Assembly (NCBI GenBank): GCA_965218095.1
Contig: OZ244587.1
Location: 5,600,001 to 5,664,000 of the forward strand
Reading direction: 5' to 3'
Source: Candidatus Poribacteria bacterium
Lineage (GTDB): Bacteria > Poribacteria > WGA-4E > PCPOR2b
DNA: 64,000 nt
The notes beneath the pieces are model-generated. The model ran no database searches, was not told the origin of the DNA, and worked only from the letters and a program-made list of their open reading frames with translations. Made by a program: the position numbers and the translations under genes. The first letter of the stretch is position 1, and the number at the start of each line of letters is the position of its first letter. Positions 28,399-58,123 of the stretch are shown piece after piece.

Positions 28399-28648
28399 AA
28401 GGCAAAACCTTTTCGCCAATCAGCCAGATGAACATTTGGGCTTTTTGATTGACCGCTCCATCAATCGGGTATGCGTAAAAGCGGCGCGATCAGCGTCTGC
28501 CCGCTCGAACTCCGTCACACCTCAACGGGTAAATCGTAGACCGCCTCCAACTGCTGCCGCGTCAATACCACCTGTGGTGTTCCAACGGCGACCGTTTTGC
28601 ACGCGGTTTGCCTCCGCTCCCCGATCGGCGTCGGGGACATGCTTGATA
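28399..28648 (-). pseudogene. Collapsed hmuU-hmuV relic (hmuU 5' end joined to hmuV 3' end)
   Basis: 28595-28648 matches 31417-31467, and 28530-28598 matches 29730-29797. Confidence 0.8.
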
Positions 28649-28732
28649 GTCGTTACGTGGTGTGTTATACTTTCAGTCGAAAGCAGAAGGATGATTCTCC
28701 TAAACAACTATCTTAAAATAATGGAGGAAATC

Positions 28733-29350
28733 ATGTCATCCGTCGCTGTACAATCCCACCTGACACCAGAGGAGTACCTCGCTTTGGACCGCAAGGCGAC
28801 AACCAAAAGCGAATATCTCAACGGTCAGATTTACGCATGGTTGGCGTCAATTATTCTCACATTCACTCTTCTTATTGTATCTTCGTGCGGCTATAATGGC
28901 CCATTTCAACCAGTTAGTGGAGTAGAAAAAGAACGAATAAAGACGGAGTTGAAAGATCGGTCATTCCGTCAATTTGATCCTGACAAAGACGCGAGTCCGA
29001 GAAAAGGAGTTGTTCTGAGTTTCTTTGGGGGAATTAGTCTCTGGGCACAATATTCCGAAGGCCGTCAAGCGATTAACGAGTGGGAGATTTCCGCAAAAGA
29101 TTATCGTGTTGAAAAGGCGGGCGATGATTCGGAAATCAAAATTTATTTCAACGAACTGAGCTCGGCAGGAATACTTCCTACTCAGTGTAAAAATTGTATT
29201 CAAACTTCGGGATTCTCTATTTCAATCAGGGATGTTTTCGATAGCGAAAAGATATCCTTCAAGCTGAATAATCCTGATAACAGTTTGCCCTCACCGTTTC
29301 CTGTATTTAAATCGTGGACAAAATTTAAGGAGGATGAAATTTTCGATTAA
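28733..29350 (+). CDS. Chimeric ORF: Uma2 N-terminus fused in frame to an AT-rich putative lipoprotein
   Basis: RBS GGAGG precedes ATG 28733. Sequence MSSVAVQSHLTPEEYL...KSEYLNGQIYA is followed by a hydrophobic stretch ending LIVSSC. Confidence 0.6.
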   Translation: MSSVAVQSHLTPEEYLALDRKATTKSEYLNGQIYAWLASIILTFTLLIVSSCGYNGPFQPVSGVEKERIKTELKDRSFRQFDPDKDASPRKGVVLSFFGGISLWAQYSEGRQAINEWEISAKDYRVEKAGDDSEIKIYFNELSSAGILPTQCKNCIQTSGFSISIRDVFDSEKISFKLNNPDNSLPSPFPVFKSWTKFKEDEIFD

Positions 29351-29363
29351 ATTGCCCAACTTT

Positions 29364-29665
29364 CACCTGACGCCGGAGGAGCACCTCGATTCGGAACACA
29401 AGGCGACGACCAAAAGCGAATATCTCGACCGTCAGATTTACGCGATGTCCGGTGCGAGTCGGAAGCATAATCTCATCGGAGGTAATATATTCGGTGGGCC
29501 TCATGTCCAAGTGAGGGATCGGGCTTGTGAAGTCTACGCCAACGACATGCGCGTGCAGGTCACCCCGATAGGGCTATACGCCTACCCGGATGTTGTTGTC
29601 TGTGATGAACCACGCTTCGAGGACACCAGCTTTGATACACTCCTCAATCCGCCGGTTCTTGATGT
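29364..29665 (+). pseudogene. Uma2 (DUF820) endonuclease fragment
   Basis: KSEYL..QIYAMSGAS..HNLI, CEVYANDMRV, YPDVVVC and TLLNP motifs; truncated where it meets hmuV. Confidence 0.8.
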
Positions 29666-30433
29666 GGAACCGGAAGAAAGAGGCACGACAACCAGTCGGC
29701 CGCTCGAATGTTGCATCACTTCAAAAGGCAAATCGTAGACCGCCTCCAACTGTTGCGGCGTAAAAATGAGTGTGGGTGTTCCAACGGCGACACGGTTTCC
29801 GTCACGCAACATAAGAACCTGCTCGGCATACATTGATGCTAGATTCAGGTCGTGAATCGCGGCAATGACCGTTTTTCCTGACTGTGCGATTGACCGGCAC
29901 AAACGGAGCATCTGGACCTGATGGCGAGGGTCAAGATGATTCGTCGGTTCGTCCAACAAAAACAGTCCCGGTTCTTGTGCGAGGATACGGGCAAGATCAA
30001 TGCGAGAAGCTTCCCCGCCCGATAGCGTCGGATAAAGGCGTTCAGAGAACATCTCGGCTTCCATCTGTTTCATCGCCTGCCGCGCAATTGCTAAATCCGC
30101 GGATGTCTCTTTCGCGCCGTTGAGGTGCGGATAGCGTCCGAGCAGGACAATCTCCAGTGCCCGGAATGGGAAGTTGACATCGCGTTTCTGTTGAAGATAG
30201 GCACGTTTTCGCGCTAATTCTTGTGGCGCGTATTCACCGATCGATTCACCAAAAAACCGGATTCGCCCGGTTGTCGGCGACAGTTCGCCGGAGATGAGGC
30301 GTAAAAGCGTTGATTTGCCCGCGCCGTTTGGTCCGATGAAGATCCAAAACTGACCGGCTTCGATTGTCAGGTCAATGTCGCGGACGAGCCACTTCTGGCC
30401 GATGCGATAACCGACCCGTTCCAGTTCAACCAT
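29582..30433 (-). CDS. hmuV: Heme ABC transporter ATP-binding protein
   Basis: GPNGAGKST, LSGGE, LLDEPT..LD..HQ and HDLNLA motifs. The C-terminus reads on into antisense Uma2 DNA. Confidence 0.9.
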   Translation of the reverse strand: MVELERVGYRIGQKWLVRDIDLTIEAGQFWIFIGPNGAGKSTLLRLISGELSPTTGRIRFFGESIGEYAPQELARKRAYLQQKRDVNFPFRALEIVLLGRYPHLNGAKETSADLAIARQAMKQMEAEMFSERLYPTLSGGEASRIDLARILAQEPGLFLLDEPTNHLDPRHQVQMLRLCRSIAQSGKTVIAAIHDLNLASMYAEQVLMLRDGNRVAVGTPTLIFTPQQLEAVYDLPFEVMQHSSGRLVVVPLSSGSTSRTGGLRSVSKLVSSKRGSSQTTTSG

Positions 30434-31460
30434 ACAGCACCTCTTTCTTGAATCTCATCAATAGCCAGAGGAAAAACGGCCCCCCAAGCAACGCGGTGAC
30501 AACGCCAACAGGCAATTCGGCGGGGACGGCAACAGTTCAGGCAAAAAGATCTGCCAACACGAGCAGAATTGCGCCCCCCAACGCGGAGCCGGGCAACACA
30601 TACCGATGGTCGGCGCCGCCCATGAGGCGGAGCAGGTGCGGCACGACGAGTCCCACGAAACCGATGCCCCCCGCCGCCGACACGGCTGCGCCGACGGTCA
30701 ACGCGACGCCAAAGACCGCCCACCGCTTCAACGATTCGGTCGAAACACCGAGGTGATACGCTTCCGATTCGCCGAGGCTCATGGCGTTGAGGGCACGGGC
30801 GAGGCGAAACAACACAATCGCCCCGACGATTGCCACCGGAAGCGTCACGGCGACCACCCGCCACGTCGCCCCACCGAAGCCGCCGAGTAACCAGAAGGTG
30901 AGGCTCCGAAGTTGCTCTTCGTCCGCGAGGAAGGTCATCAAGCCGATGCCCGCGCCTGCGAAACTGTTGAGCGCGATTCCTGCCAACAACAAGGTCACTG
31001 TGAGGACTCGTCCTTGCATTTGAGCGATTTTCCAGACGCCGACTGTCACGAGGATACCACCTGTGAATGCCGCGATCGGTACGCCCCAGATTCCCAAAAA
31101 ACCGCTCCCGATGAGCACAATCCAGACCGCCGCGCCAAGTCCTGCACCCGCCGTTACGCCAATTAACCCCGGGTCGGCGAGGGGATTGCGGAAGATGCCC
31201 TGCAATGTCGCGCCGGAGATGGCTAAAACCGCCCCGACGATGGCTGACAATAGCACGCGGGGAAATCGGACGTAGATGAGCACCTCAAACCCGTCTTCGT
31301 GGAAAAGCAGGACGCGGGGGATGCGCCACGGCAGAATCTGATACGCTCCCACACCCGCCGCAACGCACAGCGAAATTGGGAGTAAACTGGCGAGGATGAG
31401 AAGAATTTTGGATCGATTTTGCACGGTTTGACTCCACTCCCCGATCGGCATCGGGGACAT
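30426..31460 (-). pseudogene. hmuU: Heme/iron ABC permease (FecCD family) with an in-frame TGA at 30537-30539
   Basis: RNPLADPGLIG and IGFVGLVVPH motifs. After LADLFA* the same frame continues TVAVPAELPVGVVTALLGGPFFLWLL...* to 30426. Confidence 0.85.
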
Positions 31461-31486
31461 GCTTGATCATCTCATCGCGATGAATA

Positions 31487-32404
31487 CTATTCACCCTTCG
31501 CAACAAAATGTCCTTCCGATTCATAGATGCCCCGAAACAGGTCGAGTGCCGCTCTGCCACAACGGGGACCGAATCCCGACAAGTACAATCCGTTTATCGC
31601 AATCACTCGTCGATTTCGCCCGGCAGGTGTCTGCGCCAAACCGGGGAGTTTGAGTAACCCTTCGACCCCGCCGATCGATTTCAACCCCGATTCAAACAGC
31701 ACGTACACCTCCGGCTGTGCGGCGATAACCGCTTCCGCTGTCATCGGTTTCGTGCCTTTGATTTTGCCCGCGGCATTCGTCGCACCCACAATCTCAATCA
31801 TCGCGCCCGGTGCTGAGTCTCTGCCGAGCACAAAGGCGGTTTGGGGGCCGCGCAGATAGAGGAACAATGCTTTCCGTTTCGACTGACCTTCCCGTGCGGC
31901 GCGTTTGGATTTCAACGTGTCGAACTGCTTTTCTAACGCTGAAATCAACGCTTCAGCGCGTTCTTGGCGACCGACCGCCTTAGAAATCGTGCGGAGACGC
32001 TGTTTGGCTTCATTGAACGTTCTCGGCTCTTTGAGTAGTAGCACCGTCACGCCCGCCATCCGTAGCTGGTCAATGACTTGCGGTGGTTTCACGTCATCAC
32101 GACCGATGATCAACGTCGGTTTCAGGGAGAGAATCCCCTCTGCGTTGAGCCGATACTGATAACCGACCGATGGCAATTTTTCTTTGGCGTGTTTTGGATA
32201 AGTGGAAGATGCATCGCAACCGACAACATTCTCGCCGACACCCAGTGCGAACAGGATCTCGGTGGTACTGCCGTTGAGTCCGATGATGCGCTCCGTTGAG
32301 TTGATGACAACCGTTTCGCCGTGGGCATCTGTGACTTCAACGGGCTGTGCCGCGGCGAGCAACGAAATAAGACACAACAGAATCACAAGCGGTTGTTTTT
32401 TCAT
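31487..32404 (-). CDS. hmuT: Heme ABC transporter periplasmic binding protein
   Basis: TEILFALG, VG.D.SS.YP, VGYQYRLNAEGILSL.PT and GFGPR motifs. Confidence 0.88.
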   Translation of the reverse strand: MKKQPLVILLCLISLLAAAQPVEVTDAHGETVVINSTERIIGLNGSTTEILFALGVGENVVGCDASSTYPKHAKEKLPSVGYQYRLNAEGILSLKPTLIIGRDDVKPPQVIDQLRMAGVTVLLLKEPRTFNEAKQRLRTISKAVGRQERAEALISALEKQFDTLKSKRAAREGQSKRKALFLYLRGPQTAFVLGRDSAPGAMIEIVGATNAAGKIKGTKPMTAEAVIAAQPEVYVLFESGLKSIGGVEGLLKLPGLAQTPAGRNRRVIAINGLYLSGFGPRCGRAALDLFRGIYESEGHFVAKGE

Positions 32405-32635
32405 TGTTGACTCCTTATCTTGAAAATAGGGAATTGAAGGTTTGGTTTTGACACGGTCGGTCGATTTGTGTTATATTTACTCCGCGTCGAAAACATCTGC
32501 TGACTTTGGGAGATTTTCATTGTGGGTTAAAATCGAAACCCTGATTCAATTTTATGCGAGAAATTTTCTCGCAAATCAGAAGTTGAGCCGCAAACGTATT
32601 ACCTGTGCAACTGACACAAAACATGGAGATGACGA

Positions 32636-33874
32636 TTGACTCGAATCGCAACTGAAATCCGTAGTCCAAGGTCTTTTAACCAGCCTTTGGATCGCACCGA
32701 TCTTGATATTGCCGACAAGAAACGGACTAATCTTCTCGCTTGGCGTGGTCAGTTCTCTCCCCAGTTCGTGCAAGCGATTCTTGAAAGTTACACGCACCAG
32801 AATGATATCATTCTTGATCCGTTCGTCGGCAGTGGAACTGTTCTTGTGGAATCTGCACATTTAGGACACGAAGTTTATGGTTTTGAAGTCAATCCTGCTG
32901 CCGAAACACTAGCCAAAGTATACACGTTTATAGGTTACAGCCCGAAAGAACGGTGTGCGCTGCTTTCGCGTGCGGAAAAAACCTTATCTAAATATATTCC
33001 GCTAGGGCTTCCCCTCTTTGATTCAAGAATTTCAAATGATGACGATAGCGTATCAATTAACCCGCTTATCCGTCATTTGCCCGGGCTGAAGAGTATTGAT
33101 ATCAAGATACTGCTCGAATCATTAGTCGTAAAATTGGACATCGGCGGAGAGTACTTTCCAATTCACAGTTTATGGTCGAAATGGAATGCGCTTCGCACAC
33201 TTGTAGAATCTTTACCACAGTCAGAAAAAACAGTATCGGTCGCGTTAGGAGATGCGAGATACTTACCGTTGGACGATAGCGTCATTGATTTCGTTCTGAC
33301 CTCTCCACCGTACATCAATGTCTTTAACTATCACAATAATTACAGAACCTCTATTGAATTGCTGGGCTGGAAACCACTTGTTTCCGCAAGATCAGAAATC
33401 GGCGCGAATCGTAAGTTCCGGCAGAATCGTTTTCTAACTGTGGTTCAGTATTGCATTGATATGAGTCTTTCATTAGCAGAGTTAGTCCGGGTCTGTCGGA
33501 ATTCAGGGCGAATCATATTCGTTGTGGGAAGGGAGTCCAATGTTCATAAAACCGCTTTTTTCAACGGTGCCATCCTTCGTCGTCTCGCCGAAGAAGTTAT
33601 CGGTATCAAAACTGCTTTGCAGCAAGAAAGGAAGTTTCAAAATAAATTCGGCAACCTGATTAAAGAAGATATCCTGCATTTCATTCCAAGCAATGGGCAA
33701 CAGGTTAATCGTTCTCTTACCATCAAACAAGCAAAACAGATCGGAGCAGAGGTGTTATCGAATGCTCGGGATAGAGTCCCGACAGATCGACGTGGTATTC
33801 TCGATGATGCCCTGAGCCACGCACACCAGATAGAACCTTCTCCTGAGTTTATAGCTGCACAGGCGAAAGAATAA
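32636..33874 (+). CDS. Amino-DNA methyltransferase, probably N4-cytosine (alpha order)
   Basis: Motif I DPFVGSGT precedes motif IV TSPPY; coupled to the next gene by TAATG. Confidence 0.88.
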   Translation: MTRIATEIRSPRSFNQPLDRTDLDIADKKRTNLLAWRGQFSPQFVQAILESYTHQNDIILDPFVGSGTVLVESAHLGHEVYGFEVNPAAETLAKVYTFIGYSPKERCALLSRAEKTLSKYIPLGLPLFDSRISNDDDSVSINPLIRHLPGLKSIDIKILLESLVVKLDIGGEYFPIHSLWSKWNALRTLVESLPQSEKTVSVALGDARYLPLDDSVIDFVLTSPPYINVFNYHNNYRTSIELLGWKPLVSARSEIGANRKFRQNRFLTVVQYCIDMSLSLAELVRVCRNSGRIIFVVGRESNVHKTAFFNGAILRRLAEEVIGIKTALQQERKFQNKFGNLIKEDILHFIPSNGQQVNRSLTIKQAKQIGAEVLSNARDRVPTDRRGILDDALSHAHQIEPSPEFIAAQAKE

Positions 33875-34785
33875 TGGCACGACCAACACCGCACTTAGAT
33901 AAGCTTAACGCGCTACTCGCAAACGACAAACTACCTGCCGATGACAAGGAAAGAATCGATTATGCGATAGAGAAATATCATGAATGGATACAGGCGATGT
34001 CAGAAGCGGATGAGGATGAGTCTGTTATTATTGAACGATTGGTTTCCCTGCTTTCCGGGTATAAGCAGTTTATCGATTTGGATACCATATTCGATAGCGA
34101 AAGTGATTTTTTATATCGGCAAAAAGGACAGTTAAAACTGGATAACACGGTAATAGAAGAATTTCTTCCTCATTTGATATCGAGGGCACTGCCAGACTTG
34201 GATAATACCCTATATCTCGGTCCACAGTCGTGTTTTTCGGCAACATATTTTACATCTACCCTTACGCATCACGAACGTGGGGGCGGATTCCATATTCGGA
34301 CAAAAAACCAAGATTTCACCATCGCACGGAAACTATTTATACGGACATCGCATCATCCAAATTTTGAAGGAGATTTTCTAAGCCGGGAAACTTATCTGGG
34401 CTACATATGTGCCGAGTGCAAAACGAATTTGGATAAGACAATGTTCCAAGAGGCATCGGCGACAGCTCATGATGTTAAAGCGGCTGTGCCCGGCGCGAAG
34501 TACTACCTGCTTTGTGAATGGCTTGATATGACTCCGATTAGCACCGCACCAACTGATATTGATGAAGTCTTGTTGCTTAGAAAAGCGAAGAGAATTGGTT
34601 CTCAAGTGAGGCGTCATTATGCAACCTATTCGGGACGCCAGAAAGCTCGAGAAGAGTATGCTGAATTCCTTAGAGATAACCCTTTTGCGCCGGATGTATT
34701 CACTCGACTTGTTCGCCATATTGAGAGTGTACTCAATGACCACGCCCCAGAAGAGGGAAACGTGCTAAACGGCGGTTATTTCTAA
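33874..34785 (+). CDS. Bpu10I-family type II restriction endonuclease
   Basis: RQKGQLKLDN..IEEFL, K.QDF and ECKTNLDKTMFQEA motifs; adjacent to the MTase. Confidence 0.85.
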   Translation: MARPTPHLDKLNALLANDKLPADDKERIDYAIEKYHEWIQAMSEADEDESVIIERLVSLLSGYKQFIDLDTIFDSESDFLYRQKGQLKLDNTVIEEFLPHLISRALPDLDNTLYLGPQSCFSATYFTSTLTHHERGGGFHIRTKNQDFTIARKLFIRTSHHPNFEGDFLSRETYLGYICAECKTNLDKTMFQEASATAHDVKAAVPGAKYYLLCEWLDMTPISTAPTDIDEVLLLRKAKRIGSQVRRHYATYSGRQKAREEYAEFLRDNPFAPDVFTRLVRHIESVLNDHAPEEGNVLNGGYF

Positions 34786-34789
34786 AAGC

Positions 34790-34869
34790 CCCGCGAGCGA
34801 TGAAACGAGACAGAACAGCATCACGAGGTGTTGTATTTCATTGTTGACTCTTATCTTGAAAATGGGAAC
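34790..34869 (-). repeat. Diverged copy of the hmuT RBS and signal-peptide region
   Basis: TTTCATTGTTGACTC-TTATCTTGAAAAT-GGGAA matches 32399-32433 and extends into the signal peptide codons. Confidence 0.8.
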
Positions 34870-35005
34870 ATTGTAAAAATTGACCGCTCATGTCAAGAAA
34901 TGGTGAAAAGAAACCGAGTTTTTCCAAAAAAACTCGGTTTCTCCCGGATAGGTGGGAGACGCAGCCCCCTCCCACAGTAGCGTGAACTGTTCGTTTGCGT
35001 CGGTA

Positions 35006-36662: not shown

Positions 36663-38609
36663 TCAGTAGTTCAAAGAGAGTCCGCCATAAAATGACCGCC
36701 CGGTGAAAGTATAAAAGGCTGGAATTTTGAAGTCGAAAATGTTGTTGATGCCGACGGAGGCTTTGAGCCATTTGAGAACCTGCTTTGACCCCCGAAGATT
36801 CCAGATATAGTTGCTCGGCGCGTACTCCTCATCTTCAAGTACATTGTCGCTGTCGTCGAAGAATCCCCACCTGCTGGCGTAACGCCCGCGCAGGTCTAGG
36901 TTGAAACCGGCGTCTCGGTTTGTGTAGGCAAGCTTGAGGTTGCCGCTGTGCTTGGATCGATTGAGCAGCGTCAAACCTGTCTCCTTATCCTCGCCCTTGA
37001 GATACGCATAGCCGACCATCGCGGAGAAGCCCCCGATTGAACGGGTCGAAAATTCGACTTCAACCCCTTCGGTAAACGCTTTGCTGACGTTGAAATACTG
37101 AAATTTACTCCCGCCAAGCACGCTTTTCCCAATCCGCTCCGCTTCGATCAGGTTTTTCAGGTTGTTCCGATACAAGTGCACCCGTCCTAGCAGCGCGGAC
37201 TTAAACTGGTATTCAACCCCAAGATTCCAACTCCCCGACGACTCCGGTTGCAGGTCTGGATTTCCAAGCACTTGATAGCCAGATGTCGGATTGCTGAAAT
37301 CGAGATAGAGGTCTTTGAAGTCGGGTGCACGAAAGCCTTGACCGAAGGAGGTGCGAATCGTGACATCACTGGTCACGTGATACATCCCGCTCAACTTTGG
37401 ACTGAAGTGCGTTCCAAATTCGGAGTGATGGTCAAGCCGTCCCCCCAAGACAAGCGCAAGGTTTGCCATCGGTCGAAATTCGTTCTGGAAAAACAGCGAA
37501 TCCGTCGTAACGCCCTTCTCACCGCCTGCAATGCGTTGGGATTCGAGGTTTTCAAAAATTAACTCTGCGCCAACGGTCAGTTGGTTCTTCAATCCGAGGG
37601 CGGTGTCAAATTGCGCTTCGCCTTTGATCAGGTCTTGAACCGTGACGTTTGATGACGCGGTGAGCGAGGTGCCACGGTCAATAACCGTCGATTCATCGCG
37701 GTAGCGTGTGGCGTAGATTTTGCCCATCAACTTTGAGCGCAAACCGAGTTGATACCCCGTGCCGACGCTTCCGCTGAAGTTGTCAATATTGCCGAGGCGG
37801 TCGAAGATGATGTCGTCTGTTTCACTGACACCCTCCTGCTCTTGGGCAAAATACTGCCCCGAAAACAGCAGCATCGCTTTGGAGGTAAGTTGATACTCGG
37901 TCCGCGCAGAGTGGGTCAAGTTCTGATAGCCATCAATCGTCGTCGAAAGGTCTGACTCGTCTAGATCGATTGGGTTTCGGCGATTTGCGGCAAGGGTCAA
38001 TAGCGCGTTGAACTTGTCGCGTTTCAACTCAACCGCGCTGCGACTGTCAATGGTGTTGTGGGTCTCGAAGTTGTTGGTGAATTGCACAGCAAATGGGGAC
38101 GACACTTTGCGTGTGATAACGTTGATGACGCCCCCCATCGCAGCACTGCCAAAGAGTGCCGACGATGCGCCTTTGACAATCTCGATCCGCTCAACGTTTT
38201 CGACTGCAATCCGTGCGAGGTCGAGTTTGCCAGCGATTCGACCGACCTGCGGTTCGCCATCAAGTAGGACCAGGATGTAATCGGAAGCGAGCCCTTGCAG
38301 TTGAACACCGTCGCCGTGGGCGTCGCGATGGACGACAACCCCCACCCGATGCTCAAGCACCTCGCCGATGTTTTCCGCGCCTGTCGCTTCAATCTCACTT
38401 CGCGTAATGACTTCGGTGATGACCGGCGTGTCTTTTAACCGACGCTCGGTTTTTGTGCCGGTGATGACCACCTCGTCCATCTGAAAAAAGTCAGCGATTG
38501 ACGCGGTTTGGGCGAAAGTGCAGACGGGTTTGAAGCCTGTCTCTACAGTCATTCCACCGATGGTGAAGATAACGAAAAAACCGATCCAGATTCGGTTGTG
38601 TAAACTCAT
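36663..38609 (-). CDS. TonB-dependent receptor, likely heme (HmuR-like)
   Basis: DEVVITGT, RIEIVKG..S.LFGS.AMGGVINVIT, FRAPDF..LY and NPDL.PE motifs; upstream of hmuY. Confidence 0.9.
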   Translation of the reverse strand: MSLHNRIWIGFFVIFTIGGMTVETGFKPVCTFAQTASIADFFQMDEVVITGTKTERRLKDTPVITEVITRSEIEATGAENIGEVLEHRVGVVVHRDAHGDGVQLQGLASDYILVLLDGEPQVGRIAGKLDLARIAVENVERIEIVKGASSALFGSAAMGGVINVITRKVSSPFAVQFTNNFETHNTIDSRSAVELKRDKFNALLTLAANRRNPIDLDESDLSTTIDGYQNLTHSARTEYQLTSKAMLLFSGQYFAQEQEGVSETDDIIFDRLGNIDNFSGSVGTGYQLGLRSKLMGKIYATRYRDESTVIDRGTSLTASSNVTVQDLIKGEAQFDTALGLKNQLTVGAELIFENLESQRIAGGEKGVTTDSLFFQNEFRPMANLALVLGGRLDHHSEFGTHFSPKLSGMYHVTSDVTIRTSFGQGFRAPDFKDLYLDFSNPTSGYQVLGNPDLQPESSGSWNLGVEYQFKSALLGRVHLYRNNLKNLIEAERIGKSVLGGSKFQYFNVSKAFTEGVEVEFSTRSIGGFSAMVGYAYLKGEDKETGLTLLNRSKHSGNLKLAYTNRDAGFNLDLRGRYASRWGFFDDSDNVLEDEEYAPSNYIWNLRGSKQVLKWLKASVGINNIFDFKIPAFYTFTGRSFYGGLSLNY

Positions 38610-38807
38610 TAATTGTCTCCTTTCTGTGTAATTTTCTTGACAATCGCAAAGCGATTGGCTTATCTTAATAGGAACAGAAAGGGCGATGGGCGCAAAAAAG
38701 CCCCATTACATCAAACCGATAGAGATATGGGATATAGCTAACAATTGGCCGTTGGGAGCTGTCCCTTTTCTATCGTTTGCCTTTTCTGTTATTTTATTTC
38801 CTATTGA

Positions 38808-38830
38808 TTGATAATGAGTCTCAATATCAG
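38808..38830. promoter_or_regulatory. Fur-like operator
   Basis: GATAATGAGTCTCAATATC (38810-38828) resembles the GATAATGATAATCATTATC consensus and lies upstream of the heme operon. Confidence 0.75.
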
Positions 38831-39113
38831 ATATAATACAACTTTATTGAGCGATAACTAATGAGATAATGTTTCTCCAAACATTCATCTCGTCCTCAAT
38901 TCGTGTTCGATTCGACGTATGACCGGAGCACGGTGTTAATTTGTGCTCCACATACAAATACTTATGTGCGTCAATCATAAAGCTTAAATTTAACGTAGGT
39001 TCGTAGTAGGGCGATTTATCACCCGTCAGGTTCGTCGTCAAGTGCTTTATCGCCTGTCCAAACGCGCAATGAATTGCGCTACTACTAACTTTTATATCGA
39101 ACTCACGTTAAAT

Positions 39114-39886: not shown

Positions 39887-40050
39887 AAGCCTCCTCTGAT
39901 TAGTTCATATCAAAAACAGGCGCAAAGCCGCTTAGAGAAACCGAGTTTTTGCGTCGGGTAATCCCGCTAGCCTTCAGGGTCCGAAAAACTCGGTTTCTGG
40001 AATCAAACGGTTTCTTTGCACGAACTCTTAACATGCCCCCCTGATTTTGC

Positions 40051-40079
40051 TTGACATAAACAGCGTTATTGCATAAAAT
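40051..40079 (+). promoter_or_regulatory. Sigma70 promoter of bfr
   Basis: TTGACA-17 nt-TAAAAT. Confidence 0.7.
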
Positions 40080-40121
40080 TTCAGTTGATTCAACCCAATT
40101 CCAAACATTAAGGAGAAAACA

Positions 40122-40607
40122 ATGGACGGACACCCTGAAATCATCGAAGTGCTCAACGAAGTTTTGACGTCTGAACTCACCGCTATCAATCAGTATTTTG
40201 CCCATTCCGAAATCTGCGAAAACTGGGGATATGAGCGTCTCCATCAAGCGATACGCGAACATGCCATCGGAGAGATGAAGCACGCTGAAGAGCTCATTGC
40301 TCGTGTGCTCTATCTCAATGCCATGCCCAACATGGCACGCTATTTCGAGATTAAGATCGGCGCGAATGTCGAAGAGATGATGGTAAATGACCTCGCCCTT
40401 GAGAAAGAAGCGGTCGAGCGGCTTAATGAGTTTATCCAACTGGCCCATACCCACAAGGATTTCGGTTCGGAAGAACTTCTTGAGCAGATCCTCAAAGACG
40501 AGGAAGAGCATATTGACTGGATAGAGGCTCAACTCGACCAGATTGACCAAGTGGGCATCCAAAACTACCTCGCACAACAGATTATTTCTGACGAAGAGGG
40601 AGCATAA
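40122..40607 (+). CDS. bfr: Bacterioferritin
   Basis: ELTAINQYF.H, EMKHA (heme-ligand Met), EE.HIDW and G..NYL..Q motifs. Confidence 0.96.
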   Translation: MDGHPEIIEVLNEVLTSELTAINQYFAHSEICENWGYERLHQAIREHAIGEMKHAEELIARVLYLNAMPNMARYFEIKIGANVEEMMVNDLALEKEAVERLNEFIQLAHTHKDFGSEELLEQILKDEEEHIDWIEAQLDQIDQVGIQNYLAQQIISDEEGA

Positions 40608-40623
40608 TTGGCTCCCGTGCATG

Positions 40624-40693
40624 CTATAACGATTCCAGAAAAGCAATGAGCGCGTCCCTGTCGCTTATGGACATCTGTCGAGCTATCTCACGC
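40624..40693 (-). repeat. Diverged copy of the 3' end of the di-heme oxidoreductase gene
   Basis: Translates REIARQMSISDRDALIAFLESL*, versus REAVQQMSASDRDALIAFLESL* at 41682-41751. Confidence 0.85.
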
Positions 40694-40719
40694 AAGGCGA
40701 TTACAGCATCACCTCACAT

Positions 40720-41535
40720 TTAGTCATAAATAATCCAACCATGGCCTGACTTTTTGTTCTGTTTTAGTTCTTCAAAGCTTTCAATAATGTTCCTACTGTC
40801 ATATCTGACGATATTTTCATACCTGACAATGAACTTCGCGTAATACTTCAGTGCTTCCGCCTTGTATTTCACGGTACGTTGTTTGTCTTTTTCTGGGTCG
40901 TCACTGTTAATTTCGACGTGTCTGCTGTAGGGATCATCAGGATGGGCCAGCACCGCCCAAAGACCGTGATTGAGATGTGCAATATCGAGGTAAGCCATGT
41001 GGACCTCTGCAAGCCCGCTTTTCGCGTACTTCTCGACGTAGGCGTACCGGGCATTGAGAGATTCTTCGACAGCTTCACGGTCATTGTATCCCCGCGCAAT
41101 GAGATAGTATTCGGCGGCGGGACGCCAACTGCTGTCTGGATAAAGTGCAACCAAGCGTCTCAGAAAGCCGTAATGATACCAATAACTTGCACCGATTTCA
41201 TTGTAGGTGATATTTGCTCCTAGCCGATTTAGTGCCGCGGCTTTTTCCCACTTTACCCAATAATCCCCTGGCAGATCTCTATGCTCTTCATGAAATTCAT
41301 CAGTGAGAACTCTCATTAGCTGGCTAGAAAGCGTATTGGCAAGCCAGAGTGCTTCCTCTTGGTCCTCGCTTTTCTGATCGGCTGTCAACAGAGGTTCCAG
41401 AGCGACAAGCGCATCGTAAAATTTTAACTCTGTTATTAAAGCCTCAGCTTTATCGAGAGAGCTTTCATTATTGCCAAACGCTAGCGTCAAAGTGGCAAAA
41501 CAGAAAAAAATCACGAAAAATGCTCGACACTTCAT
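40720..41535 (-). CDS. Secreted alpha-helical hypothetical protein
   Basis: RBS GGAGG, signal peptide, 271 aa. Confidence 0.75.
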   Translation of the reverse strand: MKCRAFFVIFFCFATLTLAFGNNESSLDKAEALITELKFYDALVALEPLLTADQKSEDQEEALWLANTLSSQLMRVLTDEFHEEHRDLPGDYWVKWEKAAALNRLGANITYNEIGASYWYHYGFLRRLVALYPDSSWRPAAEYYLIARGYNDREAVEESLNARYAYVEKYAKSGLAEVHMAYLDIAHLNHGLWAVLAHPDDPYSRHVEINSDDPEKDKQRTVKYKAEALKYYAKFIVRYENIVRYDSRNIIESFEELKQNKKSGHGWIIYD

Positions 41536-41681
41536 CTTATACCTCCTTTGCGGTCAAAATCTGCGGACTTCTCAAACTCCGAGTCGATTAATTTCTCTCA
41601 GGTGCGGGAACTTTACCCCTACTGCGATTTTGATTTAATGCATTACCCAACGATGACATAATTGGAAACGAAAAAACCACA

Positions 41682-44832: not shown

Positions 44833-45258
44833 ATGAATCACATTCATAGAACGCTTGCCGTGATTGCCGTCATGTTGGCAGCCGTTATTAGCGGCTGTTC
44901 AAGTGATGACAATCAGGGCGAGAACGGCGAAGAATCCGGCACTGAACTTGCGCTGAACGAGAACTACGATAATGTCAGAAACGGTGTCCGACTCATCTTG
45001 GCCTACGACGCACAAAGCAATTCTTTCAAAGGTACAGTGGAAAACACCACCGACAAAACCTTGAAGCAAGTTCGAGTTGAAGTCCACTTGTCAAACGGAA
45101 CAGAACTCGGACCAACAACTCCGGCTGATTTAGAACCCGGTGAAGAAAGAGACGTCGAACTAACGGCAACAAGCAAGGACTTTGACGGGTGGACTGCCCA
45201 TCCTGAAGTCGGAAGCGGCGAACATGGTCACGGCGAAGGGGACGGTGAGCATGATTGA
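44833..45258 (+). CDS. Small lipoprotein with Ig-like (FxLYD-like) domain and His-containing tail; putative gene cassette
   Basis: Lipobox ISGC and G.VENTT...L..V.VEV.L. Flanked by GTTAGAC (44805) and GCCTAAC (45279); opposite strand to the operon. Confidence 0.75.
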   Translation: MNHIHRTLAVIAVMLAAVISGCSSDDNQGENGEESGTELALNENYDNVRNGVRLILAYDAQSNSFKGTVENTTDKTLKQVRVEVHLSNGTELGPTTPADLEPGEERDVELTATSKDFDGWTAHPEVGSGEHGHGEGDGEHD

Positions 45259-45290
45259 GAAGGCCGACCGTGAACGCCGCCTAACGTCCG

Positions 45291-47710: not shown

Positions 47711-47887
47711 GTGCTATTAAATAAAAACGGGCATACTCAGCCATTCTGTTTGCCCGATTGATGTTGGTGCTTCTCAAATTGCTACTGAGACTCATTCGCA
47801 ATTAAAACTCCATTATATTATAAATCGCAGCAAGGATTTTGTCAAGTTTTTTTTCAAATTATTAGCGAAGGAGGTGCGCGGTGTTAT

Positions 47888-48224
47888 AAAATCAAAACAA
47901 GCAGCAACTGCCGGGAGTATAATTCCTAGAAAAGGAAATGCCCAATGTTATCAGTATCATGTCTTGGGTTGGCAACCGAAAGAACGGTCTATCCACTCGC
48001 AATTCGAGCCTCAAGCGACTCTGATAGAGACGTAGGAATTCTATTCCGACGAGTGCATAGGTGCCCAGACTACTATCCTAAATGATTGCTCCGACGGAGG
48101 TTTCCTGACTCAAGCGGACCAGAACCTTTTCACCCAGATGGCGCAAAACAACGCGATAGGCACTCGCTGAGGCCGGTGCCTCGTAAACGGGCTCGCCGAC
48201 CGATATATCCTGTTTGTGCAGCTT
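47888..48224 (-). pseudogene. Internally deleted relic of a paralog of the gene at 7381-8318
   Basis: 47888-48070 aligns with 7377-7560, and 48081-48224 aligns with 7994-8139. Confidence 0.85.
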
Positions 48225-49357: not shown

Positions 49358-50571
49358 TCTAACTCACCCCCGTAAATGGAGGATTAAATATGTCAACAAA
49401 GCGGATTCAGCATACTGCCAAATTCAAGTTTCAAATTGCACTTAAAGCCATCAAGTCAGACAAGAGTATCAACCAACTGGCAAGCGACCACCAGTTGCAC
49501 CCAAGCCAAATCAGCCAGTGGAAGAAACAGTTGCTTGAACATGGGAGCGATATTTGCGCTTCCAGTCTGAGTAAGCAACAACGCGAGCAAAATGACAGAG
49601 AGTCGAATCTGTATGAGCAAATGGGGCGGTTGAATATGGAACTCGACTGGTTGAAAAAAAAAGCTGCCTCAAGCCGCTGAACAGAGACGGGCGCTCGTTG
49701 AACCTGACCACCCCAAACTGAGTATGCGTCGTCAGTGTCAGTTGCTGGCGGTCTCTCGGTCAACGCTCTACTACCCACCCGCTGCAGAGTCGGAAGACAA
49801 TCTGCATCTGATGCGGCAAATAGATGAGCAGTATATGGAAACACCTTTCTATGGGAGTCGTCGAATGACATAGCATCTCAAGCGTCTTGGCTACCGTGTG
49901 AATCGCAAACGCATCAGGCGACTCATGCGTTTGATGGGCATAGAAGCAATTTATCCCAAACCCAAGCTCTCACCCATTAACAGCGAGCATCGGATTTATC
50001 CATACCTATTACGTGACTATGAGGTGACCGCTTCCAATCAAGTCTGGTCGGCTGACATTACATATATCCCGATGAATAAAGGGTTTATGTATTGGGTTGC
50101 GATACTCGACTGGTATAGTCGTTACGTCATCACTTGGGAGTTATCCAATAGTTTAGAGAGTCAGTTCTGTCTCGACGCCTTGCATCAAGCATTATGTGGG
50201 GCAACTCTTGCAATCTTCAATACCGACCAAGGTATCCAGTTTACCGCCAATGCTTTCACCGATACCATCGAAGCCGCTGGCATTGCTATGAGTATCGATA
50301 GCGCGGGTCGGGCCATTGACAACATTTACATCGAGCGGTTTTGGCGTTCGGTCAAGTATGAAGATGTTTACCAGAAACTGTACCCGACGGGACAAGCCCT
50401 TTTTGATGGATTAACTCATTATATGCGTTTCTATAATGAGAAGCGACCTCACCAGAGTCTCGATTATGCGACGCCGGCTGAGGTGTATCTCGGCTAAAGC
50501 AGTGTCGGTGACTCTCAATCATCTTACTTATTTATCCATTATTTTGGCATGGACAATGGGTCCACTTTACA
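49358..50571 (+). mobile_element. IS3-family element (orfA 49390-49680, orfB to 50497), inactivated
   Basis: OrfA HTH ends WLKKK at an A9G slippery site. OrfB has W.ADITYI, DWYSR, FNTDQG.QF and DN..IERFW motifs, and an in-frame TAG at 49871. The right end reads ...GGGTCCACTTTACA. Confidence 0.9.
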
Positions 50572-56087: not shown

Positions 56088-56229
56088 TGGTTTTCCTTCC
56101 TTGCGTCTCTCCTTGTCAGGAGAACCAACGCTGAAAATTTCGAGAAAGTTGCGAGATTTATACCAGCGAACGGCGCAGGGGCTCATATCACGCAACTCTA
56201 TCACTCAACAATCTACCAGGAGAGAAACA

Positions 56230-57240
56230 ATGCAACTCAAATTTGCTTATCTAGGCGCATGGCACAGCCACGCCAGCATGCACACCCGTGAGGCAACAGA
56301 GCGTCCGGAGGAATTTCAACCTATTGGATTCTACGACCCAGATCCGGCGGTCGTTGCGAGAAGAGAGCAGGAGTGGTCTGAATCCTTTCCTGACCTCACC
56401 GTTTTTCCATCAGTCGAAGCGGTATTGGACAGCGACGCTCAAGCGGTCATCGTCGAAGGGCATGTTTACCAGAATTTGGACTACGCAGAGCAGGCGCTTG
56501 AAGCGGGTAAACATGTGTTGCTCGAAAAACCGGCAGGCGTCGATCTGGAACAATTGAAGCGGATCCACAAACTCTCGGAGCGCAAGGGACTGAGCCTTCA
56601 GATGGCGTATATGTGGCGGTACAATCCCACTATCCACGAGATCCTCCGGCTGGCTAAATCGGGGGCGTTGGGTAATATTTTCTACTATCGTGGGCACATT
56701 CCCAAGCCCATATTGTGGCATCCGCAGTTAGAGAAAGAGTTCAAGGTTTATCACGGCGGGATCTACTTCGAGATGGCTGGCCACCTGATTGATCTGATGG
56801 TCATCATGATGGGCGAGCCGAAGGCGGTGCAGCCCTCCTTGGGACGACACTACGACAACCGATCCGAGGTGGATAACGCAGTCGTCGTCCATGAATTTGA
56901 AAGTGGGCTCGGCACAATTGACACGGCAGGCATGCACGTTGAGAGCGGCAAAACCCGCCGCATTGAAGTGTACGGCACGAAGGGTACGGCCATCCATACG
57001 CCCATCGGCTCGGATAACCTCAGCCTGAGTTTAGAAGCGGATGTCGAAGGCTACACAGCGGGTTCGCAAGATGTGACCATTACTCGGTCGTCAGCCTCTA
57101 GATCGCTGTTGCGAGAGCTCGCCGCCTGTATTCGAGGAGAAAAACAGCCAGATTACACGCTAGCGCATGATAGGGCTGTACAGCGGACACTATTTGCCGG
57201 TTGTGGCATAACAGACGGAGATGCGCTTAGGTCTACGTGA
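56230..57240 (+). CDS. Gfo/Idh/MocA-family oxidoreductase
   Basis: ALEAGKHVLLEKP, RYNP and GG...E..GH.ID motifs; RBS AGGAGA precedes ATG 56230. Confidence 0.9.
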   Translation: MQLKFAYLGAWHSHASMHTREATERPEEFQPIGFYDPDPAVVARREQEWSESFPDLTVFPSVEAVLDSDAQAVIVEGHVYQNLDYAEQALEAGKHVLLEKPAGVDLEQLKRIHKLSERKGLSLQMAYMWRYNPTIHEILRLAKSGALGNIFYYRGHIPKPILWHPQLEKEFKVYHGGIYFEMAGHLIDLMVIMMGEPKAVQPSLGRHYDNRSEVDNAVVVHEFESGLGTIDTAGMHVESGKTRRIEVYGTKGTAIHTPIGSDNLSLSLEADVEGYTAGSQDVTITRSSASRSLLRELAACIRGEKQPDYTLAHDRAVQRTLFAGCGITDGDALRST

Positions 57241-57321
57241 GGCTAAAAATGGGGTCGTTTGATTTAGCACCGAGCGATTTTAATGATCTGGCGAGTCAGT
57301 CAGGAGCTTAGGGGTATAAAA

Positions 57322-57375
57322 ATGTTCGTTGGCGTGGATGGGTGTAAAGCTAGCTGGTTCGCTGCGGGCTGCTAG
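57322..57375 (+). repeat. Diverged relic of the DUF429 gene start
   Basis: MFVGVDGCKASWFAAGC*, versus MFIGVDGCKAGWFAVGL at 57407. Confidence 0.8.
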
Positions 57376-57403
57376 CCCGTTCATCAAACGTGAATGGTTT
57401 TGA

Positions 57404-58123
57404 ATGATGTTCATTGGTGTAGATGGCTGCAAGGCGGGGTGGTTTGCTGTTGGACTGACAGGCGACAATCGCTGGCGGGTTGATGTTTTTCCGGATATGT
57501 CTAGCCTTTGGGCTCGGTACAGTCAGGCGTCGGTGATACTGGTTGATATCCCTATTGGCCTGAGAGAAGATGGTACGGGTGAACGCCGCTGCGACCCTGA
57601 AGCCCGGAAGTTGCTCGGTCCAAGGCGTTCGAGTGTGTTTCCCGCGCCGTGCCGGGGGGCGATCTATGCGCAGTCATATCAGGAAGCCTGCGATGTCAAT
57701 CAACGACTGATAGGCAAACGATTGTCTGTTGAAAACTGGAATATTATCCCCAAAATTCGTGAGGTCAATTGCTTACTTTCGGGCGACGCCTCCGCGAGAG
57801 ATCGCATCAGAGAAACCCATCCGGAACTCTGTTTTTGGGGATTGGCGGGTCGTCCGATGCAACACGCCAAAAAGCGGAGTGAAGGATTGTCGGAACGGAC
57901 ACAGCTCCTCCAGTCAATTTATCCACAGACTGCCGATATTATCGCCCATGTGCTATCCACCTATAGGCGCAAAGATGTAGCAAGGGACGACATTCTCGAT
58001 GCACTATCCGCCGCAGTGACAGCCATGATAGGGGGACAAAATCTTGCATCCATTCCACAAGAACCGGAGTTTGATAATCGGGGATTGCGTATGGAAATGG
58101 TATACTATAATTATACAGCGTAA
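57404..58123 (+). CDS. DUF429 (RNase H-like predicted nuclease)
   Basis: GVDGC..GW, VDIPIGL, R.SSVF.AP, E.HPE and DD.LDA motifs. Confidence 0.88.
   Translation: MMFIGVDGCKAGWFAVGLTGDNRWRVDVFPDMSSLWARYSQASVILVDIPIGLREDGTGERRCDPEARKLLGPRRSSVFPAPCRGAIYAQSYQEACDVNQRLIGKRLSVENWNIIPKIREVNCLLSGDASARDRIRETHPELCFWGLAGRPMQHAKKRSEGLSERTQLLQSIYPQTADIIAHVLSTYRRKDVARDDILDALSAAVTAMIGGQNLASIPQEPEFDNRGLRMEMVYYNYTA

Follow-up and report, generated by a model that had tools for sequence, protein, structure and literature searches.

The window, a 64-kb stretch of a Candidatus Poribacteria chromosome from a sponge symbiont, carries a haem-uptake and iron cluster. We analysed this one window together with one 22-kb neighbourhood in relatives, for which 27 Poribacteria loci were fetched; clade groupings such as clade I were named post hoc, once the trees had been viewed. 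A preliminary description had reported that one end of hmuT, DHOR, a Uma2 gene, hmuV, hmuU and a DUF429 gene is present twice, and had read the pairs as brackets around foreign DNA. All six pairs are genuine and lie far above chance (self-BLASTN within the 64-kb window; ungapped matching for DUF429), at or near the positions first reported. The coordinates of the hmuV pair, the treatment of hmuV and hmuU as separate brackets and the cargo at DUF429 do not hold, and the excess of third-codon-position differences holds at DUF429 but not generally. The six pairs are not a single process repeated six times, and only one scar, at the R-M genes and hmuT, shows foreign DNA together with a swapped allele. 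The features of this scar are as follows.

32434-34792, plus strand: R-M cargo (Bpu10I-type pair), inserted into the hmu operon and convergent with it
32442-32639, plus strand: 65-aa ORF without a family, first ORF of the R-M cargo
32636-33874, plus strand: N6/N4 DNA methyltransferase (Pfam PF01555)
33874-34785, plus strand: Bpu10I-family restriction endonuclease (Pfam PF09549, E 6e-110)
34793-34869, minus strand: hmuT copy B, the stranded resident start, with ribosome-binding region, ATG and ~16 codons
32355-32433, minus strand: hmuT copy A, the start of the working gene, with 29 nt upstream and 16-17 codons, of the other allele type
30130-32433, minus strand: tract of raised synonymous divergence, comprising hmuT, hmuU and the first ~100 hmuV codons, its far boundary approximate

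The R-M cargo has a GC content of 44%, against 52-55% in its flanks. A comparison with related loci reveals the empty site: none of the 24 related Poribacteria loci spanning it has the pair, and HmuY and hmuT lie only ~40-350 nt apart in 23 of the 24 related loci with both genes (computed from locus coordinates). The 27 fetched loci contain no M or R homologue; in the relative L015, IS630- and IS3-family genes occupy the site. The nearest non-conspecific homologues of the R protein are 88-89% identical, a homologue at 82% is attributed by its source to a Thiohalocapsa MAG, and the R cluster consists of three sequences on two contigs. No terminal inverted repeats were found for the cargo. The R-M insertion is the youngest of the events.

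The two hmuT starts (32355-32433 and 34793-34868) are 83.5% identical over 79 nt, with 3 one-base gaps (self-BLASTN, E 3e-13). Copy B has an early stop caused by a 1-nt deletion and runs on into the native HmuY terminator and an intergenic region conserved in relatives. Over the first 50 coding columns, 8 of the 10 clade-I relatives compared are nearer to copy B than to copy A, although by only 2-7 of the 50 positions; one is a tie, and the tenth, L015, is IS-disrupted. The stranded start is thus of the native type, in line with the swapped allele that had been proposed. Copy A begins with the signal peptide MKKQPLVILLCLISLLA, in contrast to the clade-I type MKIQQL.... Read by eye from an alignment, the last ~14 nt of the relic are about as similar to the intact copy as to the clade-I type; taken alone, these nucleotides would leave room for a single-crossover origin.

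Behind copy A, synonymous divergence is raised up to 1.8-fold over ~2.3 kb. Specifically, the dS ratio, that is, dS between the window and clade I divided by dS within clade I, is 1.82 for hmuT codons 20-200 and 1.53 for codons 201-305, 1.13-1.53 for hmuU (only 1.13 for codons 1-150), and 1.25 and 0.78 for hmuV codons 1-125 and 126-251, while the ratio of medians is 0.79-1.02 in the upstream genes DHOR, Rieske, ABM, TBDR2 and HmuY. In hmuT codons 20-200, all seven dS values between the window and clade I (1.12-1.96) lie above all 21 values within the clade (0.41-1.07). The third-position profile rises from 0.96 in its last HmuY interval to 1.58 in its first hmuT interval, a step located exactly at the cargo; the tract is uneven and without a sharp far end. 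Furthermore, the HmuY tree pairs the window with the relative L005 (support 95), and AU tests on the hmuT 5′ alignment reject both this pairing (p 0.001) and a placement of the window within inner clade I (p 0.003). Run the other way round, the AU tests give weak results (p 0.03 for HmuY and 0.097 for TBDR2).

The empty site, the native relic, the one-sided divergence tract and the tree conflict support, at this junction, the earlier proposal of homology-facilitated illegitimate recombination (HFIR); as far as sequence comparison can tell, the architecture is shown in part to be the product expected of that process. The divergence tract is read as DNA that would have been imported along with the R-M cargo. 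The R-M pair and the adjoining hmuT may have entered together from a more diverged Poribacteria lineage, with hmuU and early hmuV potentially coming in too, to a lesser degree than hmuT. On the hmuT-hmuV side, the tract suggests that the incoming DNA was integrated through homologous exchange, while on the HmuY side it would have been joined non-homologously inside the resident hmuT, at about codon 16-17. A dead stub of the resident gene, with its ribosome-binding site, start codon and 16 codons, would thereby have stayed behind, and the imported hmuT start would now carry operon reading. No donor was found for the R-M genes and the hmuT tract (the best non-conspecific hmuT is only 84-86% identical at the protein level).

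Two further cargos lie between copies of a DHOR end and of a Uma2 start.

40624-40693, minus strand: relic DHOR 3′ end, 22 codons and stop
40694-41681, minus strand: orphan cassette, a 271-aa secreted protein without a family (40720-41535) plus spacers
41682-41751, minus strand: intact DHOR 3′ end, 57 nt identical to the relative L001, followed by 13 nt with 4 private changes
28734-28836, plus strand: Uma2 start copy 1 (35 codons), sharing the reading frame of the lipoprotein ORF
28837-29350, plus strand: lipoprotein-like cargo gene, signal end ...LLIVSSC with a lipobox by eye, GC 40%
29334-29738, plus strand: Uma2 start copy 2 (29364-29443) and truncated Uma2 body (Pfam PF05685, E 9e-10)

The DHOR ends (40628-40693 and 41686-41751) are 83.3% identical over 66 nt (self-BLASTN, E 4e-12). 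The last ~20 nt of the relic overlap the start of a downstream 248-aa ORF (39900-40646), and this site, too, is found empty: of 7 relatives that carry both genes, 6 have DHOR overlapping or directly adjoining that ORF. The orphan cassette has a GC content of 45%, and its protein has no Pfam or NCBIfam match. Among the fetched loci, a homologue of the orphan gene is present only in L005, at the same site and with the same two junctions, indicating that the insertion has one origin; L005 carries three DHOR ends. The copies in the window differ at codon positions 1, 2 and 3 by 2/5/7. Polarised with relatives, the relic has nine private changes (2/4/3), only outside the gene overlap, and the four private changes of the intact end are synonymous or stop-to-stop. 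The DHOR flank diverges normally (dS ratio 1.02), and the orphan gene dS between the window and L005 (0.65) lies inside the flank baseline (0.44-0.77). A second, imported allele is therefore not supported here: the changes fit in-place decay and the flank is native, the decay pattern that the preliminary description had itself set against its reading. In-place decay under split constraints would explain the differences. The gene-attached copy would change only synonymously and the stranded copy would decay, spared where it still serves the next gene, as the DHOR relic may be because it holds the start of the downstream ORF.

The Uma2 starts (28757-28836 and 29364-29443) are 87.5% identical over 80 nt (self-BLASTN, E 2e-21). 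The stub 5′ of the lipoprotein gene is kept in L003, L015 and L025 (71-84%, ~103 nt) and in part (35 nt) in L007, and lipoprotein orthologues, 77-80% identical in nucleotides, lie 3′ of hmuV in L003, L006, L007, L015 and L025. The PF05685 match of copy 2 spans profile positions 2-100 of 172; copy 2 and its body are probably a decaying fragment, the 3′ part of which doubles, antisense, as the hmuV tail. The copies differ evenly over codon positions (3/3/4), which argues against a second allele here, and the change is non-synonymous in 7 of 10 changed codons. The DHOR/orphan and Uma2/lipoprotein events are probably both insertions that duplicated 66-80 nt of target, the copies having then diverged in place.

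The remaining pairs enclose no cargo of this kind.

28399-28648, minus strand: fused relic hmuU′/hmuV′, from alignments, also in L015
28595-28648, minus strand: hmuU′ start in the fused relic, 15 codons, 2-nt indel
28478-28594, minus strand: hmuV′ 3′ end in the fused relic, in-frame TGA, followed by ~80 nt of downstream sequence
18262-18489, plus strand: second fused hmuU′/hmuV′ relic, inverted, 88.6% identical over 202 nt to 28399-28599
57322-57375, plus strand: relic DUF429 start, 17 codons closed by TAG, 31 nt ahead of the intact gene
57404-58123, plus strand: intact DUF429 gene, 3′ of the relic start

The hmuU starts (28595-28647 and 31417-31467) are 90.6% identical over 53 nt with a 2-nt gap (self-BLASTN, E 1e-12). 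The hmuV ends share a core (28518-28592 and 29717-29791; 82.9%, E 1e-12) and are 72% identical over 115 nt; the true counterpart of the relic is 29677-29791, and 28399-28477, earlier included in the pair, has no counterpart in resident hmuV and matches the second relic at 18288-18489. The two pieces, taken before as two brackets, abut (28399-28594 and 28595-28648) and form one fused relic. The same fused junction is present in L015 at 20534-20619; the relic is old and shared with another species. It may be the remnant of an old second hmuUV copy that predates the split from L015.

The DUF429 starts (57322-57372 and 57407-57457) match at 35 of 51 positions, against 28 of 51 for the next best ungapped match on both strands of the window. 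They had been listed as a cargo bracket, but only ~31 nt are enclosed. Lys at residue 9 is present in both copies and is rare among homologues; among the first 60 of 120 homologues listed, only P0241 and P0279, both 98% identical, have it. The third-position excess described earlier is clear here (3/2/11), absent from the Uma2 pair and mixed at DHOR, and it fits either two alleles or decay with synonymous drift.

Neither integrase nor transposase, nor terminal inverted repeats, are found at the three cargo junctions, as the preliminary description had noted for mobility genes; an IS3-family rve fragment (49898-50497) lies inside the range it covered. The larger claim, that this lineage gains its genes predominantly through HFIR after natural transformation, a route left unannotated so far, is very improbable. 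This claim draws on the R-M/hmuT junction as one match to the expected product, on the junctions free of mobility genes, and on bracketed inserts in other species with chromosome-scale assemblies (L005, L007 and L014), where direct repeats 145-238 nt long and 72-73% identical enclose 7.9 kb in L007 and 4.8 kb in L014. However, the 2.2-kb insert of the window between Imelysin and DHOR (43100-45290) is not bracketed by a repeat, the hmuT-hmuU inserts of 12 relatives (HEPN, nucleotidyltransferase, Uma2, S4 paralogue) all come without a clear gene-end copy beyond shuffles (four are marginal, 27-31 versus 22-26), and IS genes sit at the L015 R-M site. HFIR accounts for the R-M/hmuT junction and not for DHOR/orphan, the Uma2 pair or the hmuU′/hmuV′ relic, so it provides no general rule. 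Among the papers listed by a literature search, none connects Poribacteria with comEC and competence in this sense.

Some genomic islands integrate into gene ends and supply a replacement end, and IS fragments are present in the window, at 2329-2697 and at the rve site. Remnants of such integrase islands or of transposons with a surrogate gene end, or assembler chimeras of mixed strains, are hardly credible as the source of the pairs: the three cargos lack integrase and transposase domains and measure only 0.5-2.4 kb. Against an assembly artefact, the window proteins map to a 6.35-Mb contig, the window hmuT allele (99-100%) recurs on two other contigs, as the R gene does on other contigs, the orphan cassette has identical junctions in the chromosome-scale L005 assembly, and architecture of this kind also occurs in the L007 and L014 assemblies. 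A circle carrying a gene end as a short homology arm, integrated by a single, reversible RecA crossover of the Campbell type, would likewise place cargo between direct repeats with reciprocal chimerism. The repeats, at 51-115 nt, exceed the minimal pairing length for homologous recombination, the orphan cassette has identical junctions in two species, and the DHOR mosaic is reciprocal, the upstream copy being native for 57 nt and then differing, the downstream copy differing for 49 nt and then native. Yet split constraints predict the same mosaic, decay in the L005 DHOR relic has taken another course precisely where constraint is absent, vertical inheritance is enough for an orphan dS at the flank baseline, and the native gene body predicted beyond the repeat is not observed at hmuT; no circle was observed, and this origin is improbable.

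Nobusato et al. reportedly described, in 2000, R-M system insertion with long target duplication. If all pairs, the R-M pair included, were long target duplications made at insertion and later diverged in place, no allele would have been imported. This reading accounts for the DHOR pair and for the evenly spread Uma2 differences, and the accessible part of Furuta, Abe and Kobayashi 2010 (PMC2853133) documents close likenesses: R and M genes alone, inserted in an operon between direct repeats that exceed 30 bp and cover a start codon or a stop codon, with the target gene intact and an empty site in relatives. The repeat pairs given there are, however, true duplications, 93-100% identical (44/46, 47/47, 417/423, 384/412 and 388/397), whereas identity between the hmuT copies is 83.5% and the working one lies in a longer foreign tract. 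What looks like a duplication at the R-M site is thus better read as a resident start plus an imported start. Furthermore, the dead hmuT copy is at least as close to clade I as the working one, the raised dS is confined to the side of the working copy with the HmuY side normal, and the trees conflict, so that target duplication throughout is doubtful. The layout is also shared here by non-R-M cargos, the orphan and lipoprotein genes.

HFIR has been described (PMC3240628; primary papers cited in PMC5361080 and PMC2884548) for E. coli conjugation and in three naturally transformable bacteria, Acinetobacter, Streptococcus pneumoniae and Pseudomonas stutzeri. The R-M/hmuT scar resembles it in having one end anchored by homology and the other joined without, cargo trapped beside the anchor, no mobility gene, and the expected one-sided diverged tract; it differs in that HFIR is here deduced from a natural scar and matches a single junction well rather than all six pairs. 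HFIR is likewise proposed, in the relevant passages of Kirchberger et al. 2017 (PMC5361080), for gene 3′ end displacement in Rhs, CDI and T6SS effector-immunity loci, where a new allele and cargo enter via homology on the conserved side, the old end is kept downstream as an orphan, and serial events create arrays, comparable to the three DHOR ends of L005. The genes affected here serve haem transport and redox functions, without immunity genes, and starts as well as ends are stranded. Both mechanisms, HFIR and R-M insertion with long target duplication, are already in print.

We consider it reasonably probable that the window holds at least four separate scars of differing ages: an R-M insertion with an imported hmuT allele, older target duplications and an old hmuUV remnant. 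Relics persist for long in these genomes, so scars of differing age stand side by side. Their common visible outcome is a small cargo or a new allele beside the stranded start or end of a neighbouring gene.

The minus strand of the window carries the gene order orf400, imelysin, DHOR (di-haem oxidoreductase), a 248-aa ORF, Rieske, ABM monooxygenase, TBDR2 (TonB-dependent receptor), a 226-aa ORF, HmuY, hmuT, hmuU and hmuV; the HmuV score meets the threshold set for the haem ABC ATPase model in NCBIfam. Twenty-seven related loci (numbered with the prefix L) were retrieved with the TonB-dependent receptor at 36663–38609 as query (63–88% protein identity, none identical to the window); 25 of the 27 are from Candidatus Poribacteria MAGs, and for many the underlying assembly is chromosome-scale. 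We refer to L001–L007, L014, L015 and L025 as clade I and to L008–L013 as clade II, labels that were assigned after the trees had been seen. The preliminary description had listed six similarities between gene ends, all of which are real. Three of the pairs bracket cargo: the two hmuT starts enclose a restriction-modification (R-M) pair, the two DHOR ends an orphan gene, and the two Uma2 starts a lipoprotein-like gene. The DUF429 pair and the hmuV and hmuU pieces bracket none. The features concerned are as follows.

18262–18489, plus strand: fused hmuU'/hmuV' relic, second (inverted) copy
28399–28648, minus strand: fused hmuU'/hmuV' relic, first copy
28734–28836: Uma2 start, copy 1
29364–29443: Uma2 start, copy 2
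32355–32433, minus strand: start of the working hmuT copy
32434–34792: R-M cargo
34793–34869, minus strand: stranded hmuT stub
40624–40693, minus strand: DHOR relic end
41682–41751, minus strand: intact DHOR end, with the orphan cassette (271-aa secreted protein) between it and the relic

The R-M cargo spans 2,359 bp, holds the methyltransferase (M) and endonuclease (R) of a Bpu10I-type pair, has a GC content of 44% against 52–55% in its neighbours, and is flanked by a repeat of 76–79 nt that is 83.5% identical with three indels. The hmuT stub runs on from the conserved HmuY terminator and intergenic region, and has clade-I-type signal-peptide codons and a 1-nt deletion. When the first 50 coding columns are compared, the stub is nearer than the working copy to eight of the ten clade-I relatives, by a margin of 2–7 positions (the copies tie for L006, and L015 is disrupted). 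The putative non-homologous joint lies 8 nt past the R stop codon, after hmuT codon ~16 of the relic. No M or R homologue occurs in any of the 27 related loci. Furthermore, 23 of the 24 loci having both HmuY and hmuT show a spacing of ~40–350 nt, computed from coordinates, with a single hmuT start and no R-M pair; in the remaining locus, L015, this site is occupied by genes of the IS630 and IS3 families. The R protein cluster comprises three sequences on two contigs, and the presence of each cargo in conspecific genomes is judged from cluster and contig counts of this kind; the next relatives are 88–89% identical, and for a relative at 82% the source gives a Thiohalocapsa MAG as its origin. 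Since the hmuT allele and the R gene are found on other contigs and the orphan cassette occurs again in L005, an assembly artefact is unlikely. Avoidance of Bpu10I sites was considered and set aside: a motif that we take to be the recognition sequence occurs at 21 sites compared with ~33 expected from base composition, by a plain count.

Synonymous divergence along the locus, given as the dS ratio (median dS of the window versus seven clade-I loci, divided by the median dS of the 21 pairs among those loci)
DHOR: 1.02
Rieske: 0.84
ABM: 0.79
TBDR2: 0.81
HmuY: 0.91
hmuT codons 20–200: 1.82
hmuT codons 201–305: 1.53
hmuU codons 1–150: 1.13
hmuU codons 151–307: 1.53
hmuV codons 1–125: 1.25
hmuV codons 126–251: 0.78

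A tract of raised synonymous divergence opens at the working hmuT copy and lies on a single side of the R-M cargo, with HmuY on the opposite side. Specifically, in the 50-codon third-position profile the final HmuY value is 0.96 and the opening hmuT value 1.58, and the profile drops under 1 at about 30130. The HmuY tree joins the window to L005 (support 95), and the hmuT 5′ tree puts the window outside a clade holding all ten clade-I rows (support 96). AU tests on hmuT 5′ reject both the pairing of the window with L005 (p 0.001) and a placement within inner clade I (p 0.003); tests in the opposite direction give weaker results (p 0.03 for HmuY and p 0.097 for TBDR2). The search for an hmuT donor found none, the best non-conspecific match being 85.6% over residues 20–200.

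The likely reading of this pattern is that a more diverged lineage supplied the R-M pair together with hmuT and part of the DNA downstream of it, that the hmuT and downstream side of the incoming DNA was resolved by homology, and that its other side was joined inside the resident hmuT. Because such an insert brings its own gene start, no real duplication is needed at the R-M site. This fits the footprint predicted for homology-facilitated illegitimate recombination (HFIR), in which a donor-type tract on one side of the cargo would end in homologous exchange, and the other end of a linear DNA substrate, taken up by transformation or conjugation, would be joined non-homologously, usually at a microhomology of a few bases. 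Here the raised dS ratio has fallen to 0.78 by hmuV codons 126–251. The HFIR-like mechanism that the preliminary description had proposed for these junctions is supported at R-M/hmuT, by the one-sided diverged tract and the AU test at p 0.001, and is not needed at the others. In the parts of the sources consulted, HFIR has been proposed for the displacement of T6SS and Rhs genes (PMC5361080) and for dimorphic loci (PMC2884548), and is described in conjugation (PMC3240628). Literature searches on Poribacteria for R-M with horizontal transfer, or for competence with comEC, returned nothing relevant.

The closest alternative for the R-M cargo is the insertion with long target duplication described for R-M systems, for which the consulted portion of PMC2853133 gives repeats of >30 bp, often across a start or stop codon, a target gene that is kept intact, and occurrence mainly in competent species. 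The cargo agrees with that portion of the source in having both R and M within <20 kb, no other mobile element, a direct repeat of >30 bp, and an empty related site that aligns with the repeat in 23 of 24 loci. It departs in the identity of its repeats, 83.5% here and 93–100% in the tables of that portion, from which near-identity is our reading and not a stated criterion. The copy attached to hmuT lies within the diverged tract. Integrase-driven islands that carry a surrogate gene end fit poorly: as the preliminary description had noted for mobility genes at the junctions, no cargo ORF carries an integrase or transposase domain. An IS element or transposon is also disfavoured by the inverted repeats, which pair the ends of none of the three cargos, and by the duplications, which are 51–115 nt rather than short. 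A diversity-generating retroelement was rejected as well, as the ORFs in 21.6–59.4 kb contain no RT domain and the differences between the DHOR copies involve all four bases and are not adenine-specific.

A single event, in which incoming R-M and hmuTUV displaced the whole resident operon, would account for three hmu relics at once, but it was rejected on three grounds: relatives without the R-M pair also have the lipoprotein gene and the junction of hmuV with Uma2, the fused hmuU'/hmuV' relic has a counterpart in L015, and hmuV codons 126–251 are native-like. The hmuV-end and hmuU-start pieces are contiguous and form one fused relic. L003, L006, L007, L015 and L025 also have the lipoprotein gene (77–80% nt), along with its upstream Uma2-start stub and the Uma2 remnant into which the tail of hmuV runs, indicating that this arrangement is old. 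The two Uma2 starts differ at 3/3/4 sites by codon position, and 7 of the 10 changed codons are non-synonymous. Copy 1 is nearer than copy 2 to the sequences of relatives, and copy 2, together with the truncated body that follows it, has the look of a fragment in decay, judging by its match to Pfam profile positions 2–100 of 172. In L005 and L010 the hmuT–hmuU gap contains a Uma2 gene, which agrees with the relic order of Uma2 start, spacer and hmuU' start. The fused relic occurs twice in the window in inverted orientation, 88.6% identical over 202 nt, and the two copies enclose ~10 kb in which a sigma-factor fusion and a TonB-dependent receptor are encoded, a layout that we take to resemble inversion-associated duplication. 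The C-terminal tail of HmuV (~30 residues, 29582–29680), beyond the haem ABC ATPase model, which stops at ~residue 250, is the antisense of the Uma2 remnant; the tail is also present in L001, L003, L006, L015 and L025.

At the DHOR end, the flank is not foreign, and the one-sided diverged tract of HFIR is not found around the orphan cassette. DHOR overlaps or abuts the 248-aa ORF in six of the seven loci that have both genes. The intact end equals L001 for 57 nt and has four private changes in its last 13 nt, all synonymous or stop-to-stop, where the overlap with the start of the next gene is lost. The relic has nine private changes, all in its first 49 nt (2/4/3 by codon position), and none in its last 17 nt, which still contain the next gene's start. 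These changes fit a duplication whose copies then came under split constraints, and do not fit two alleles. A Campbell-type reading of the mosaic is weakened by the L005 relic, which shows a different decay within the same unconstrained part. L005 carries an orphan-gene homologue at the same DHOR site, along with three DHOR ends, and the two cassettes have both junctions in common, so that the cassette has a single origin. The orphan-gene dS between the window and L005 (0.65) falls within the flank baseline (0.44–0.77), so vertical descent suffices for its presence in both, and a recent horizontal transfer between them is unsupported.

Two further observations concern this site. The 248-aa ORF (39900–40646) has a dN at least equal to dS against relatives (for example, 0.09 versus 0.07 with L001), and therefore its frame or gene status is doubtful. 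In L005, positions 2187–7448 hold three consecutive DHOR ends: DHOR-a, an allele that has diverged (dS 1.5 versus a baseline of 0.45–0.77), DHOR-b (4810–6384), a chimera of a distant-paralogue body (dN 0.4–0.8) and native-like last 110 codons (dN 0.09), and, with the orphan gene, a relic end after them.

In the DUF429 pair, only 31 nt separate the relic stop codon from the new start, and the copies differ at 3/2/11 sites by codon position (eight synonymous and four non-synonymous codons). Both copies have a rare Lys at residue 9, shared among the first 60 of the 120 listed homologues only by P0241 and P0279, which are 98% identical, and the N-termini of the homologues are too conserved to show which copy is native. 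By sequence comparison, the pair may reflect an allele swap or duplication plus drift. The third-codon bias that had been attributed to several pairs is present in DUF429 and absent from both the Uma2 starts and the private changes of the DHOR relic.

Bracketed inserts also occur in the related loci: 7.9 kb between 145-nt repeats (73% identity) in L007, and 4.8 kb between 238-nt repeats (72% identity) in L014. L001–L004 and L015 have a ~150-nt copy of the TBDR2 end upstream of TBDR2, a duplication that is absent from the window (score 19 versus a shuffle maximum of 25). Inserts between hmuT and hmuU occur in twelve relatives, none of which shows a clear gene-end copy (four marginally exceed shuffles), and the window insert at 43100–45290, between imelysin and DHOR, has neither a flanking repeat nor gene-end copies. 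The proposal that this architecture is a dominant route of gene gain is accordingly unsupported. The R-M/hmuT junction and the other scars add a new case to types of event already known, in a region rich in such scars. We consider it unlikely that small accessory and defence cassettes of Poribacteria are "homology-hitchhikers", which would carry a portable copy of the neighbouring core gene's end, enter the same site in other lineages by host recombination alone (either a crossover combined with a non-homologous joint, or a circle entering through one crossover) and leave by recombination between the copies. The leads for this idea are the orphan cassette, whose junctions are identical in two species, L005 with its three stacked DHOR ends, and the bracketed L014 and L007 inserts; if true, it would define a class of mobile element without transposase or integrase.

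Other repeats and candidate replacements were seen in the region. The hmuT–hmuU gap is an insertion hotspot in L003, L005, L008–L014, L016 and L018, holding HEPN, nucleotidyltransferase, Uma2 or a ribosomal-protein-S4 paralogue depending on the species. The 2.2-kb insert at 43100–45290, present in no related locus, encodes a TPR protein (GC 35%) along with a class-I methyltransferase, and also has an ORF with an FxLYD domain. A palindromic repeat of ~34 nt that resembles a terminator (GAAACCGAG...CTCGGTTTC) lies at 12339–12372, 13869–13902, 15251–15284 and 34909–34943, after HmuY and between tandem C-type-lectin paralogues, and at several sites in relatives (L001, L006, L014, L025). A 41-nt direct repeat (90%; 20562–20602 and 21435–21475) surrounds a 192-aa membrane-like ORF (20852–21430); this could be a further small insert between repeats, or else a hairpin element of dispersed type. 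Within 38310–39110, third-position divergence is raised over the first ~100 codons of TBDR2 (ratio 1.25–1.58), and 38850–39110 upstream of TBDR2 is matched by L005 alone; 38310–39110 may be another replaced segment. Upstream of orf400, where L006 and L015 have genes of 249 aa and 77 aa, 47887–48223 is a decayed copy with an internal deletion (matching 7376–8137) of a gene that is intact 40 kb away at 7381–8342 (85–90% nt).

Third-position bias between a relic and an intact copy is by itself no proof of two alleles, as split constraints after a plain duplication give the same pattern. The stubs account for annotation oddities of the region, including short ORFs, the fused Uma2-lipoprotein frame and the 30-residue HmuV tail. 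The R-M/hmuT junction suggests that some published R-M long target duplications may consist of a resident gene end and an imported one. At this locus, the R-M system would have come with a swapped allele of the adjoining gene, with no mobile-element gene involved, making R-M/hmuT a natural, datable scar with the footprint predicted for HFIR in an uncultivated sponge-symbiont phylum.
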